17,871 nt of DNA from Promethearchaeota archaeon (GCA_013375475.1 JABXKD010000070.1:1-17871), one strand, 5' to 3'; shown: positions 5,146 through 8,849, counted from the stretch's first letter. Translations and numbers: made by a program. The notes: generated from the letters alone by a model not told the origin.

Positions 5146-7611
5146 TTAATCTTCACATAAAGGTGAAAATCTTGGTTCTTCTAAACCCGGTTCAACATTC
5201 ATCTCAATTTGATTCAATTGAACTAATCGTAAAGCTTCGTAGCGAACTTTTTTGGTTTCTAAATTTAAGGTTTTTGAAATGTTGCTAATCGTGGTTGGAC
5301 CTTGAAGGGTTACATAATCTAAAACTTGTTGTCGTGGAGTTTTCTCTAAGACTTCCATTTCTCGTTTTGATTTAAGATTGATTGCTTTCTTTAATTCGTC
5401 CTCGTTAACAGTGCCCTCTTCGAATGACCCTTGAGCTATGGACTTTTCAATGATTTCTTTTCCTCTTTCTGTCCACGCTACGACGGTTGTGAAGCCTTGC
5501 TTGGAACCAACCTCTCCTGCCGTGAAATCGGAATAAATTGCAGGAAAATCCTGGCAATGAGAACAATAATGATTGCAACTTAAACACCGTCTAGCTTCGG
5601 CTAACGCCATATCTTCAGTAAACATTGCTTCGATTTCCTCAAAATTCCATTGGATGTCTTCGGTAGCTTCTTCTAAAGATTCTGGTTTTAATGAATAATC
5701 CTTAGGAGTTCTTGTAATTCCTTCAAAAAACATTTTATTTTGCCTATAGCGCCCCTTTGATAAATCCTCTCCCTTTAAGTATCGATCAATAGAAATAGCC
5801 GCTTCTTTACCATGGGCTATTGCCGCAATTGCAACTGCTTTCGAGTGAGTAATGGTATCTCCACCTGCAAAAACTCCCGGAATGTTGGTTTCAAAAGTTA
5901 TCGGATCGATCTCGATTTTATTGTGTTCCTTTTTGAGTTTATTGCCCGTAGCAATGTCAATCAAATTGAAATCAACGGCTTGACCAACGGCAATAACTAT
6001 AGCGTCTGCTTTAATTTCATAATCAGAACCCTCAATTTTATTGATTGAGCGTCTCCCAGTATTATCTACCTCTCCTTTTTCGATTTTGTAGCTATTTAGA
6101 ACTAATGTCTCACCTTCTCCTTTGCTGATTTTTGATACTGAAGTTTCAAAATGATATTCCATGAACTTTAGTTCTTCTTCAGGAATTTCTCGAAGTACGA
6201 GTTCAAGATCCTTTTCATTCATTATGTCGACAAGGTGGATTTTTTCTGCTCCTAGCCTCAGAGCTGTCTGTGCAACATCAACTGCAACGGGACCACCGCC
6301 TATTATTCCAATTGTTTTACCCTTAAATTCTTGCTGCTTCTGCCAATCGCGATATTTTCTATCTATAAGAAAATTGATAGCAACATGTACGTTAGGAAGT
6401 TCTTCTCCTTCTAAGTGTAAAGTCCGTGGTTTATACTGACCTGTTGCTATAAAAACAGCTTCATATCCATCATTTTTTAAGTCCTCAATCGTCATATCAG
6501 GTCCTAATGGTTTATTAAATACAATATCCACTCCAGCTTTTTTGATAGTCTCAACATCATAATCTAATACATAATCAGGTAACCGGAATTGAGGTACTCC
6601 ATATCGAAGCATACCACCAGTGTGATCAGTTTTTTCGAAAATTGTGGGAGAATAGCCTTTAAGCGATAAAAAATATCCTGCTGTAAGACCTGCCGGTCCA
6701 GCGCCTATTATCGCAACTTTCTTGCCTAATTTCTTCTTAATCTTCACACTCTTTTTTATATCTTGCTTAATTTCGTATTCTGTAATGAATTTTTTTAATT
6801 CTCTAATAGCGACAGGGTGATCCGAGCCGATTAAAGTACACCCGTGTTCGCATTCGTGCGTACAAATTCTTCCACATATAGATGGTAGTGGATTGTCATT
6901 GCGAATTAAATCTACAGCTTCCAGATATTTACCTTCTCTTATCAATGAGATATATCCTTGAGCATTAACACCCGAAGGGCAGCCTCCACAGCATGGCGAG
7001 CAGACTAAACCACGATCTGTTTCTGCAGTTCTCATGCTTGAGTTACAGAATAATCCAATTTTAAGGATATCTCGATTCATTTCTTCTCCCATTTCAGAAG
7101 CTCCTCTTATCTCACATGGAACTCCAACAATACCTACGGGTTCAAAATTATCTCCAGTTACCTCTACTAGCTTCTCTAAGACCCCAGATCTTCCATACAC
7201 GGCACCTGCGTTTTGAATCACATCTTCTGGATCAGTTACTCTGCTTGCTTTAGGTAAATCATCAATATTTTGGACCATCACGACTTCAGATAACTCCTTA
7301 TCTTTTAAGAGCTGTTTTGTAATTGTTGTGACAAATCCTCCGCTTGACGCTTTCTCTAGTATTTCAGAGTCCTTACTTCTTAAAGAATAAATTCCCAAAG
7401 GTTGAAGCTCTTTAAATTTTTTCTGCAATACTTGAGGGCAGTTTTGGTAACATTTACCACAATCTTGGCCTTCTCTTTCAAGGATACAATAATCTTTAAG
7501 TGTCGGTCGTAATGTTTCCATTTCAATATGCTTGCAATATCCTGCACATAGACCACAACCTTGGCATAAGCCCGCGTCAATAATTTCACTTCTTAATAAA
7601 TCAAAACTCAT
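5146..7611 (-). CDS. Chimeric Fe-S flavoprotein: 2x[4Fe-4S] ferredoxin + FrhB/FdhB (F420 hydrogenase beta-like) domain interrupted by a GltD/NfnB/SudA-like FAD/NAD(P) module + C-terminal winged HTH
   Basis: CQGCGLCAGYC and CGKCYQNCP. FrhB N-part: ASSGGFVT, AGAVY, VGVPCEI, KIGLFC. GltD module: SPCCGGCP, ICGRICTHECEHGC, IIGAGPAGL, GGMLRYGVPQFRLP, IIGGGPVAVD, FAGGD, EARRCLSC. FrhB C-part: CSHCQDF...DFTAGEVGSKQGFTTVVAWTERG. HTH: VLDYVTLQGPTTISNISKTLNLETKKVRYEALRLVQLNQI. Confidence 0.85.
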   Translation of the reverse strand: MSFDLLRSEIIDAGLCQGCGLCAGYCKHIEMETLRPTLKDYCILEREGQDCGKCYQNCPQVLQKKFKELQPLGIYSLRSKDSEILEKASSGGFVTTITKQLLKDKELSEVVMVQNIDDLPKASRVTDPEDVIQNAGAVYGRSGVLEKLVEVTGDNFEPVGIVGVPCEIRGASEMGEEMNRDILKIGLFCNSSMRTAETDRGLVCSPCCGGCPSGVNAQGYISLIREGKYLEAVDLIRNDNPLPSICGRICTHECEHGCTLIGSDHPVAIRELKKFITEYEIKQDIKKSVKIKKKLGKKVAIIGAGPAGLTAGYFLSLKGYSPTIFEKTDHTGGMLRYGVPQFRLPDYVLDYDVETIKKAGVDIVFNKPLGPDMTIEDLKNDGYEAVFIATGQYKPRTLHLEGEELPNVHVAINFLIDRKYRDWQKQQEFKGKTIGIIGGGPVAVDVAQTALRLGAEKIHLVDIMNEKDLELVLREIPEEELKFMEYHFETSVSKISKGEGETLVLNSYKIEKGEVDNTGRRSINKIEGSDYEIKADAIVIAVGQAVDFNLIDIATGNKLKKEHNKIEIDPITFETNIPGVFAGGDTITHSKAVAIAAIAHGKEAAISIDRYLKGEDLSKGRYRQNKMFFEGITRTPKDYSLKPESLEEATEDIQWNFEEIEAMFTEDMALAEARRCLSCNHYCSHCQDFPAIYSDFTAGEVGSKQGFTTVVAWTERGKEIIEKSIAQGSFEEGTVNEDELKKAINLKSKREMEVLEKTPRQQVLDYVTLQGPTTISNISKTLNLETKKVRYEALRLVQLNQIEMNVEPGLEEPRFSPLCED

Positions 7612-8849
7612 AATAATTCCTCGTTAATTTTAATTTCTTTTATAATACCAATTGGATCAAGGGTATATTCAATCGAACCATTTTTGTAGGTTCCTTCCAC
7701 CACATCAAAAACATGGGCTTTATACTCGTTAAAATCATCGTTAGGATCGATAATTGACTTGAATCCACCATAAAATACATTTGATAAGTTCATGTTTCCC
7801 GCGATTGATCGAATTTTATCTGTAAGTTCTCTATATTTTGGTGCATCTTCGCTCTCAATGGCTTTTAGTAAGTCAGTTTCTAATAGTAAAAGCTTATTTC
7901 GGTATTTTTTTGTCTGTTCGCTTACTTCTATTTGGTTTGCTTTCTCGTAGGATTCAATGAATTTAAGCGTTAACGATATTGATTTAGCGCCACCTAAAAG
8001 ACCTGTTATCAAAGGAATCTCTTCGATCAGTCTACCAATAAAAACATCTTCCAGCAAAGATCCCGAAGAAGGGATTCTACCTTTTGGAAAACCAGAAGTA
8101 GGTAATGTGAATCTGAAAAAATTTCCGACCACATCAGGTAAACTATCAGTAAGATCGTCAACCTCGTCTCCTAATTTGTCAGTTGCTCCTTTAACTGAAT
8201 GCTCCGTTGCAATCTCTATGTTCCCAGCTAAGGTTCCGAACATTGCTAACATGCGAATTCCAGAACGATCTATGCTTGGTTTACAACCTCTACAAGGAGT
8301 ATTGTAATCAATACATTTTTCTTTACATTCAGTCGCAGTAAAACCACTACATAGAAATCCTAAGTCGTTAAAACACGTTTCAGAATCTTTTAATTCAATT
8401 TGTCTATTGATTGATTCTAAATAGTCACAAGTTGCCTTTCTGGAACAAACTTGACATAAACTTTTTAATTTCGGAACTTTTGTTCCGTCAATGACTAATT
8501 TTAATTCTTCAATTTCGCCTAAACATCCATGAACATTACTAGAAATTTCAACTAAATTCGTTAAAGGTGTGACCTCGTGCCCTTTTTGATTTGCTAAAGC
8601 AAATACTCCACCAGTGGCAGTACAGTCTCCATAAGCAATAATTTTAGTAGAATTGTTTTTTATGCGTTCCAGATGCTCTAAGTCGTTAGGGAGTAAATAA
8701 CCCGTAATAACTGAAACATCAACTTTTTCTTCTTTCCAGTTCTTTGGATTGGAAACAAATTCAACTCTGTATTTAGACCCTTCTTTTAATAATAAGGATT
8801 CATTGAAACACTTTTTGCATCCGTTAAATTGGAATACCTTAACATCCAT
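7608..8849 (-). CDS. mvhG: MvhG-like group 3 [NiFe]-hydrogenase small subunit fused to a vestigial, cysteine-free large-subunit (MvhA-like) remnant
   Basis: aa1-258: GCKKC, YGDCTATGG, HGCLG, LCQVCSR, TCF...LCSG, CKEKC, PCRGC and MvhG-type end LPDVVGNFFRFTLP. aa266-413 resemble MvhA segments with the metal ligands lost (see findings). Confidence 0.8.
   Translation of the reverse strand: MDVKVFQFNGCKKCFNESLLLKEGSKYRVEFVSNPKNWKEEKVDVSVITGYLLPNDLEHLERIKNNSTKIIAYGDCTATGGVFALANQKGHEVTPLTNLVEISSNVHGCLGEIEELKLVIDGTKVPKLKSLCQVCSRKATCDYLESINRQIELKDSETCFNDLGFLCSGFTATECKEKCIDYNTPCRGCKPSIDRSGIRMLAMFGTLAGNIEIATEHSVKGATDKLGDEVDDLTDSLPDVVGNFFRFTLPTSGFPKGRIPSSGSLLEDVFIGRLIEEIPLITGLLGGAKSISLTLKFIESYEKANQIEVSEQTKKYRNKLLLLETDLLKAIESEDAPKYRELTDKIRSIAGNMNLSNVFYGGFKSIIDPNDDFNEYKAHVFDVVEGTYKNGSIEYTLDPIGIIKEIKINEELL

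Follow-up and report, generated by a model that had tools for sequence, protein, structure and literature searches.

The MvhGx gene and its small-subunit part

The window analyzed here, i.e., the whole stretch of 17,871 nucleotides (nt) from a Promethearchaeota archaeon (GCA_013375475.1 JABXKD010000070.1:1-17871), encodes on its minus strand a fusion protein of 413 amino acids (aa), for which the label MvhGx is used here, within an operon that also carries heterodisulfide reductase (HdrABC) genes. According to an initial annotation of this DNA, MvhGx joins a small subunit of MvhG type to a [NiFe] hydrogenase large subunit that has shrunk and lost its Ni-Fe ligands; the comparisons described below support this view. 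The gene and the parts of its product are the following (all on the minus strand):

7608..8849 (-): MvhGx gene, 413-aa fusion protein, stop codon included (open reading frame (ORF) list and translation; 357 homologs)
8076..8849 (-): small-subunit part, aa 1-258, of MvhG/VhuG type (Pfam, NCBIfam, PDB phmmer)
7611..8075 (-): Cys-free C-terminal extension, aa 259-413 (155 residues), putative vestigial large-subunit domain (hhalign, AlphaFold2 (AF2))
7866..8069 (-): segment 1 (aa 261-328), homologous to the helices that surround L1 in large subunits, residues ~37-104 (hhalign, hmmsearch)
7983..8000 (-): LLGGAK, aa 284-289, in the place of RxCGxC, the L1 motif with Ni-Fe ligands (hhalign against the genome's own MvhA-like protein)
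7761..7814 (-): segment 2, aa 346-363, IAGNMNLSNVFYGGF (= IRSIAGNMNLSNVFYGGF) (hhalign, alignments)
7626..7703 (-): segment 3, aa 383-408, beta meander of three strands that marginally matches the hairpin behind EAPRG (hhalign, AF2)

The small-subunit part is recognized by Oxidored_q6 (PF01058; E 2.6e-12; 47 bits, cut-off 27). In NCBIfam VhuG ranks first (E 8.9e-13) and FrhG lies far behind (1.3e-4), both well under their equivalog cut-offs; with 48.1 bits against the 450 of VhuG, the small-subunit part is a divergent relative and no equivalog. Among PDB sequences, phmmer aligned aa 92-255 with residues 132-295 of 5odc_E, the MvhG chain (299 aa) in the Mvh-Hdr complex from Methanothermococcus (E 3e-14, compared to 0.61 for 3zfs_B). 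The alignment reaches residue 295 of 299 and the MvhG-like part therefore ends at ~aa 258. The extension behind this point was correctly described as Cys-free, since all 13 Cys of MvhGx lie within residues 11-189 and none beyond C189; its length, given as about 148 residues, is 155 (259-413). All peptides quoted in that annotation and their coordinates proved exact (LLGGAK, aa 284-289, at nt 8000-7983; IRSIAGNMNLSNVFYGGF, aa 346-363, at nt 7814-7761).

The Cys sets for three [4Fe-4S] clusters are retained, as had been claimed: Cys 11, 14, 76, and 109 for the proximal cluster, invariant in alignments of 41 and 33 family members, and Cys 132, 135, 159, 167, 175, 179, 186, and 189 for the medial and distal clusters. 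The latter align to Cys of 5odc_E, and all 12 cluster Cys are invariant or nearly so in the 41 and 33 sequences. The reported drift of the proximal motif from PGCPP to HGCLG around C109 is also seen, VHGCLG (aa 106-111) standing at the site of IPGCPP in 5odc_E; GCPP is kept in divergent Thor-like members. Two irregular family members were noticed. In the 337-aa protein P0122 the region linking the last cluster Cys motif to the extension (~aa 190-265 of the window protein) is missing, and at one locus MvhGx is interrupted (L099:7001-8407); natural variation or errors of assembly may account for both.

Homology of the extension to [NiFe] hydrogenase large subunits

A profile built from ten diverse extensions (A1) was searched with hmmsearch against 177,635 distinct PDB sequences, resulting in 23 matches at E<=10. 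[NiFe] large subunits occupy ranks 1-8 and account for 13 of the 23. The best match is FrhA from Methanosarcina barkeri (6qgt_A, E 6.9e-6, profile 6-65 on chain 46-105), and the matches include Pyrococcus SHI alpha (E 0.008) and MvhA (E 0.37-0.82). Every large-subunit match places profile positions ~4-65 on chain residues ~41-105, the stretch that holds the L1 motif. A six-frame A1 search of the 3.9-Mb genome from which the window originates returned at E<=10 only the MvhGx gene itself and two genuine large subunits (E 1.4e-4 and 0.0275), both matched at their L1 regions. As a comparison alignment, 31 Asgard large subunits were assembled from ORFs extracted by script from Asgard loci. A1 scores at least 9.9 bits for 26 of them, all group-3-like proteins of 342-491 aa, four of which are shortened by locus ends, and scores <=0 on the three matched large subunits of 534-623 aa.

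Profile-profile comparison with hhalign agrees with these searches. The extension alignment matched the 31 large subunits with an hhalign probability of 93.8% (E 1.8e-7), the first 70 extension residues alone with 95.2% (E 2.6e-8), and over the different extension alignments the values range from 88.6 to 95.9% and from E 2.6e-6 to 6e-9. For the whole extension a score of 55.0 was observed, compared to a maximum of 21.2 in 40 column shuffles and to 17.4 for the reversed alignment. With large subunits the extension alignment reached 47.5-64.7 in its three versions, and at most 18.4 with 11 decoy families (HdrA, HdrB, HdrC, MvhD, FrhB/GltD, three DsrE/H families, TusA, a TPR protein, and the small-subunit part); the one value above 18.4 is a trivial 8-residue overlap with the small-subunit part. 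The ESM Atlas neighbors of aa 259-413 all score below 0.9; two of them, at ranks 6 and 8, belong to PF00374, which is taken as a lead only.

Compared segment by segment, with 100 column shuffles for each, the three likenesses to the large subunit that had been proposed fare differently. Segment 1 (aa 259-328) falls on large-subunit residues 37-104 with a score of 45.2 (E 6.3e-7) that is reached by 0/100 shuffles (maximum 23.2), and over all hhalign runs it scores 45-53 (E 6.3e-7 to 2.6e-8, probability 92-95%). Segment 2 (aa 329-370, including AGNMNLSNVFYGGF) is best placed on residues 133-179, the GGxxHPxxxxGG loop, with a score of 12.2, and segment 3 (aa 371-413) on residues 352-399 with a score of 20.3 (E 0.0074; 0/100 shuffles, maximum 17.5). 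Searched independently, the segments have colinear best placements (37-104, 133-179, 352-399), of which the first alone is proven. The proposed likeness thereby stood for segment 1, proved marginal for segment 3 and was not borne out for segment 2, which 32/100 shuffles equal; an alignment without gaps, as it had been described, applies to segment 1, while hhalign has to open gaps of 9 residues in segment 2 and of 11 in segment 3. Segment 1 is accordingly the only statistically secure one, and the profile comparisons show homology of aa 261-328 to group-3 large subunits.

Within segment 1, hhalign places LLGGAK on RICGIC, as anticipated; only Gly is kept (G287, invariant) and both L1 Cys are gone. 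The residues R273, E276/E277, I281, G287, E302, R317, and L320 are invariant and fall on conserved large-subunit positions. Segment 2 is the most conserved motif of the extension, with G351, L355, S356, N357, and G362 invariant in the alignments; locus L082 has K for N357. Segment 3 comprises VVEGTYKNGSIEYTLDPIGIIKEIKI (aa 383-408, nt 7703-7626), with AF2 strands at 386-390, 393-397, and 402-408, and is placed at ~235-258 in the global alignment. The EAPRG loop falls in an alignment gap and is absent from MvhGx, and the beta meander is the last element of the protein, which stops at aa 413 before any L2 motif DPCxxCxxH; both losses had been foreseen. With 155 aa compared to ~400-600 aa of the full large-subunit fold, the extension is best described as a remnant homologous to a part of the large-subunit family and no member of it in the functional sense.

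Conservation and distribution of the extension

A word-indexed search found 357 relatives of MvhGx. The 120 listed have 368-413 aa, are at least 70% identical, originate from Asgard metagenome-assembled genomes (MAGs) and go by the names "hypothetical protein" or "F420-reducing hydrogenase gamma subunit". Scanning one genome per species yielded 76 related Asgard loci, including those of Promethearchaeum syntrophicum MK-D1 (49% identity), Lokiarchaeum ossiferum (53%) and Thorarchaeota-type MAGs (33-37%). The fusion is conserved: the extension is present in 74 of the 76 loci, the remaining two being interrupted by contig ends, and in a sample of the phylum it was found in 13/121 genomes and 2/26 families. 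Even between lineages with no more than 33-37% identity the frame stays open over 411-452 aa, and 14 columns of the extension are invariant. The predicted loss of ligand Cys extends to the homologs; Cys occur in 10 of 73 extensions and in none at a ligand position. The Cys of MK-D1-type extensions (GCMGGN) was considered as a retained ligand and rejected as it aligns to the Arg position of RxCGxC.

Among 1.84 billion cluster representatives, a phmmer search with the extension alone matched only 20 proteins (E<=0.001). They comprise C-terminal fusions (403-421 aa, 33-46% identity), fragments starting at internal Met residues, and one unrelated repetitive protein. Apart from these fragments and the repetitive protein, this search revealed no stand-alone or longer form of the extension. 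AF2 models the extension with a predicted local distance difference test (pLDDT) score of 78-97 in the full-length protein and of 87.3 when modelled alone; the model consists of four or five helices and, behind them, a meander of three strands. The junction between small-subunit part and extension at 8075 is bridged with intact frame by RNA-library contigs from three studies (runs X15, X16, and X18; 90-96% identical to the window); one record shows an insertion and a deletion five bases apart, and one X16 contig crosses the MvhGx/FrhB junction. These contigs represent relatives, their presence is no proof of transcription, and the parts they leave uncovered are uninformative.

Operon and genomic context

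MvhGx lies in a gene cluster of the order tusA-dsrE/H-hdrCBA-mvhD-MvhGx-frhB(gltD)-tusA, in which neighboring genes overlap or abut:

4870..5106 (-): TusA-family sulfur carrier, last gene of the conserved cluster (Pfam TusA, E 1.8e-18)
5146..7611 (-): 821-aa FrhB-like flavoprotein, start overlapping the MvhGx stop, in which an inserted GltD-type NAD(P)H/FAD module separates FrhB_N from FrhB_C (Pfam)
8839..9297 (-): MvhD, [2Fe-2S] connector, whose end overlaps the MvhGx start (Pfam FlpD, E 1e-30)
9288..11303 (-): HdrA (NCBIfam HdrA2, E 2.8e-221)
11304..12218 (-): HdrB (TIGR03288, 365.6 bits, cut-off 345)
12222..12800 (-): HdrC (TIGR03290, 174.7 bits, cut-off 160)
12848..14741 (-): upstream sulfur-relay genes, whole block (Pfam)
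12848-13273 (-): DsrE-like (Pfam)
13378-13719 (-): DsrH-like (Pfam)
13736-14158 and 14110-14487 (-): DsrE-like, overlapping ORF calls (Pfam)
14508-14741 (-): upstream TusA (Pfam)

The flanks of the 76 loci were compared for the operon genes of the window. MvhD is encoded directly upstream of MvhGx in all 71 loci with room for it and HdrA further upstream in 60/61; the sulfur-relay genes upstream of hdrC are conserved in related loci, and the downstream TusA of syntenic loci is 54-99% identical to the window copy. FrhB/GltD follows directly downstream of MvhGx in 57 of 65 loci with room; of the other eight, six have a plain FrhB-like gene of 347-399 aa with the same N-terminus (L037:1955-3154, L057:6440-7582, L078:8239-9381, L104:8238-9281, L105:1232-2302, and L106:4740-5828), one has a 142-aa fragment and one an interrupted MvhGx. 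The locus shows the features of an Hdr-associated donor module, i.e., the MvhD connector together with HdrABC and an FrhB/FdhB-type flavoprotein downstream. Neither a large subunit nor a maturation protease was seen within the window.

In the 821-aa protein, Pfam detects FrhB_FdhB_N, Fer4_20, Pyr_redox_2, and FrhB_FdhB_C. The GltD insertion in this FrhB-like partner may add or switch the electron donor. Its second dinucleotide motif is GGGPVA (GxGxxA), which, by a rule given in a passage of PMC12054007, is a weak hint at NADP. By eye, the C-terminal region of the 821-aa form resembles a winged helix. A complex prediction for the MvhGx of locus L037 and its plain FrhB-like neighbor gave a score of 0.01, which speaks neither for nor against binding.

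The two DsrE-family ORF calls at 13736-14158 and 14110-14487 (-) overlap by 49 nt in different frames, and the start of the downstream one (TTG at 14158) is probably placed too far upstream. An AsnC-type regulator (14975-15472 (+)) is encoded divergently from the operon. The flanks of the window encode two NosD/beta-helix proteins (3-785 (+) and 15794-16981 (+)), a URO-D-family protein (1859-3124 (+)), possibly a methyltransferase of the MtaA/MtbA kind, and a nitroreductase-family protein (822-1559 (-)).

Genuine hydrogenases in the same genome and in related Asgard archaea

The two genuine large subunits of the genome are encoded on other contigs, each adjoining its own small subunit. On contig C265 the partner small subunit has 437 aa (L001:1281-2594) and, read by eye, an apparent second copy of the Cys-rich C-terminal Fe-S region; small subunits beside genuine MvhA-like large subunits have 437-453 aa (L001:1281-2594; MK-D1 L116:11410-12771). 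On contig C277 (~35180-40000; L002, L111) an 852-aa frame with HdrA-like and MvhD-like parts is followed by a 254-aa small subunit and a 434-aa large subunit. The latter carries RVCGLC and DPCISCASH, and this genome has in it a complete Mvh-type hydrogenase attached to an HdrA/MvhD fusion.

The sole large subunit of MK-D1 is encoded 3 Mb from the MvhGx operon, in a cluster of small subunit, HdrC-like, HdrB-like, and large-subunit genes with a DsrH and a sulfur-transport gene upstream; such a cluster would appear to couple a hydrogenase directly to an HdrBC-like module, HdrA being absent. Both MK-D1 and the window genome encode many HdrA and MvhD paralogs. Several HdrA and MvhD paralogs (contigs C282, C281, C221, and C30 of the window genome; G061 and G062) contain 2-4 in-frame TGA codons, which fits selenocysteine (Sec)-containing forms in these Asgard genomes; the HdrA and MvhD genes of the MvhGx operon have no in-frame TGA.

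Of the 31 Asgard group-3 large-subunit ORFs, 16 (386-455 aa; loci L009, L011, L014, L015, L017, L018, L022-L028, and L031-L033), and likewise MK-D1 L116:8652-9989, keep RICGIC, end in sequences of the type "...KLPEPMVKT" and have no DPCxxC L2 motif. A Sec codon read as stop before L2 was ruled out for the MK-D1 ORF, as its stop codon is not TGA. A separate VhuU-like, possibly Sec-containing peptide may supply L2 to these large subunits. A passage on the Asgard selenoproteome lists FrhA/MvhA/VhuU as a widespread selenoprotein family (PMC11227280).

Alternative explanations

Several results weigh against the interpretation of the extension as a large-subunit remnant and of MvhGx as an electron-transfer module. 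Pfam gave no match to the extension alone at E<=10, NiFeSe_Hases included, and in a search of the whole genome with PF00374 NiFeSe_Hases at E<=0.001 MvhGx was not among the matches; on three homologs the extension received sub-threshold chance matches only. The profile check of aa 260-413 that the initial annotation had named is thereby positive by hhalign and by the PDB profile search and negative with the Pfam family. The Loki-weighted profile A3 reached a best E of 0.016 against PDB, with large subunits as 7 of 24 matches, and no large subunit was found at E<=0.001 among the 1.84 billion cluster representatives. Foldseek with the AF2 model of the extension gave a best E of 0.79 against PDB and no hydrogenase among the 50 ranks shown, and with the model of full MvhGx it matched small subunits only, including complex I NuoB homologs and the MBS small subunit. 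The placement of segment 2 is colinear and not significant, and the marginal match of segment 3 has an alternative at the N-terminal hairpin (residues 4-37, score 16.3). Concerning the electron path, FrhB and MvhD both dock near the distal cluster in Frh and Mvh, which poses a problem of docking geometry for a wire between the two.

Part of these results would be expected if the extension were a lineage-specific helical/beta docking domain of unrelated origin that resembles the large subunit by chance or by convergence on the small-subunit surface. Such a domain would have no Pfam or Foldseek match, the significant match covers only ~68 of 155 residues with segment 2 at shuffle level, and the extension is rich in I, L, E, and K, a composition able to inflate helical matches. 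However, shuffles that preserve the composition of the columns never came near the observed score, the 11 decoy families, several of them helical, stayed at or below 18.4, and searches of the database and of the genome picked only large subunits at the same ~65-residue site. The invariant residues of segment 1 moreover fall on conserved large-subunit positions, and an order of mvhD, mvhG, and remnant fits the order mvhDGA of Mvh hydrogenases. An unrelated origin is therefore considered improbable. It is still less probable that MvhGx serves as small subunit of an active hydrogenase that recruits a large subunit encoded in trans, with the extension as an accessory domain. The three clusters of MvhGx are intact, two genuine large subunits are available in the genome, and MK-D1 has been described, in a passage of PMC7015854 (Imachi et al. 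2020), with one hydrogenase, "MvhADG-HdrABC"; each genuine large subunit, however, adjoins a small subunit of its own, the constant neighbor of MvhGx is an FrhB-type flavoprotein and not a large subunit, and the window lacks both a visible large subunit and a maturation protease. If the extension is homologous to the interface region of the large subunit, the site for a second one would moreover be occupied. The reading of the extension as the decaying, functionless tail of a pseudogenized fusion, finally, accounts for the missing catalytic motifs and the strong reduction of the domain. It is hardly credible in view of the 411-452-aa frames that are kept open across lineages to 33-37% identity with 14 invariant extension columns, of the confident AF2 model of the extension and, as a weak point, of the RNA-library contigs from three studies that cross the junction in frame.

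Proposed origin and mechanism

We regard it as probable that MvhGx is a fusion derived from a group 3c hydrogenase in which the large subunit was cut down and which acts as an H2-independent Fe-S wire in a soluble Hdr complex. The ancestor would have been an Mvh-type (group 3c) [NiFe] hydrogenase. Its genes are ordered mvhD-mvhG-mvhA, those of Frh frhADGB. In such an ancestor the neighboring small- and large-subunit genes would have fused and the large subunit would then have been reduced to ~155 residues, the part that packs on the small subunit. What remained would be the helical region around the former L1, to which a loop and a beta hairpin may be added; the four Ni-Fe cysteines would all be lost. 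An Frh (group 3a) origin was considered as FrhA is the best PDB match; an Mvh origin is preferred because the small-subunit part is clearly MvhG-like.

MvhGx would neither make nor use H2 and its three [4Fe-4S] clusters would form a wire between the FrhB(-GltD) flavoprotein and MvhD/HdrA. Electrons would enter from F420H2 and/or NAD(P)H at the flavoprotein encoded directly downstream, which would make the complex an Hdr that depends on one or both of these donors. The substrate reduced at HdrBC would be a disulfide or persulfide, and the co-encoded TusA/DsrE proteins possibly carry it. Most likely, the remnant would cover the face of the small subunit and the proximal cluster that were once covered by the large subunit. 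The Fe-S wire, the structural cap, and the absence of H2 activity, as they had been suggested in the initial annotation, are deduced from gene context, and we likewise infer the fusion-and-deletion history, the electron path, the donor, and the substrate. In its general form, the statement that the MvhGx module passes electrons to heterodisulfide reductase without hydrogen is probably correct. The complete scenario, in which some Asgard archaea, MK-D1 and L. ossiferum among them, turned a soluble group 3c hydrogenase into an H2-independent conduit from an F420H2/NAD(P)H flavoprotein to a bifurcating HdrABC acting on TusA/DsrE-borne sulfur, with the one-third-size vestige insulating or adapting the proximal cluster, is tentative and rather doubtful as a whole.

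If the proposal is true, this would be a second, independent replay of the transition from hydrogenase to complex I, in a cytosolic enzyme. Annotation pipelines label MvhGx as a hydrogenase subunit, and "MvhG next to HdrABC-MvhD" in Asgard genomes should then not count as H2 metabolism. Affected would be metabolic models of Asgard archaea, as this is an hdrCBA-mvhD-mvhG operon without large subunit that is tied to an FrhB/GltD flavoprotein and sulfur carriers; H2 evolution via "MvhADG-HdrABC" is central to the syntrophy scenario for MK-D1 as outlined in a passage of PMC7015854. MvhGx is encoded in two cultured organisms, MK-D1 and L. ossiferum, so the predicted lack of Ni and of H2 activity and the predicted Hdr activity with F420H2/NAD(P)H are testable.

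Comparison with known systems

The MvhAGD-HdrABC complex (group 3c, PDB 5ODC) shares with the MvhGx operon the MvhG-type three-cluster small subunit, the adjoining MvhD, and HdrABC in the operon. In contrast to it, MvhA is lacking here, a 155-aa Cys-free remnant is fused instead and an FrhB(-GltD) flavoprotein follows. FrhAGB (group 3a) has in common with MvhGx a small subunit that works with an FrhB flavoprotein, and FrhA is the best PDB match of the extension profile; the small-subunit part of MvhGx is, however, much closer to MvhG/VhuG and the gene order fits mvhDGA and not frhADGB.

In complex I (NuoB/NuoD) and its relatives Mbx/MBS and Ehr, which derive from group 4, the pair of small and large subunit was kept for electron transfer and the Ni-Fe cysteines were lost. 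These systems have a full-length, separate large subunit and one cluster and are membrane-bound, whereas MvhGx would derive from soluble group 3 and has three clusters, with a fused large subunit of about one third of the size. The large subunit is thus not merely devoid of cysteines as NuoD is; being cut to about a third and fused, it would mark the part that the small subunit cannot spare.

Full-text literature searches brought up no account of a fusion between a small subunit and a vestige of the large one; supplementary gene tables (Imachi et al. 2020, Asgard hydrogenase papers) may name the locus. MvhGx would be the first case found of a soluble (group 3) [NiFe] hydrogenase that degenerated into a non-catalytic electron-transfer module. 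Passages on the archaeal hybrid [FeFe]/[NiFe] hydrogenases describe a HyhS-HydA fusion, found also in Lokiarchaeia, in which a group 3 [NiFe] small-subunit domain is likewise reused, showing the modularity of this subunit (PMC11216029). Unlike MvhGx with its putatively dead remnant, HyhS-HydA is described there with an active H-cluster partner and a contiguous gene for a real large subunit.

In Methanothermobacter marburgensis, according to passages of PMC12350162, ElpA (a truncated FdhA without the molybdopterin domain), ElpB (FdhB-like), and ElpC (MvhD-like) form an F420H2-dependent electron donor of Hdr. HdrA-"Molybdop"-FdhB clusters of methane-metabolizing archaea, as well as GltD insertions in HdrA, are described in passages of PMC12054007. 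As far as these sources go, both systems have in common with the MvhGx operon a catalytic subunit reduced to an Fe-S carrier or scaffold, electron entry of FrhB/FdhB type, and an MvhD connector. Their degenerate subunit originates from formate dehydrogenase, while that of MvhGx would originate from a [NiFe] hydrogenase, is fused to the small subunit and has a predicted function. MvhGx would thereby add a hydrogenase-derived member to the Hdr donor modules, recognized only recently, in which a catalytic subunit, such as ElpA or "Molybdop", was turned into a scaffold. Among the systems compared, Elp-Hdr is the closest functional parallel, and complex I NuoB/NuoD with its relatives the closest evolutionary one.

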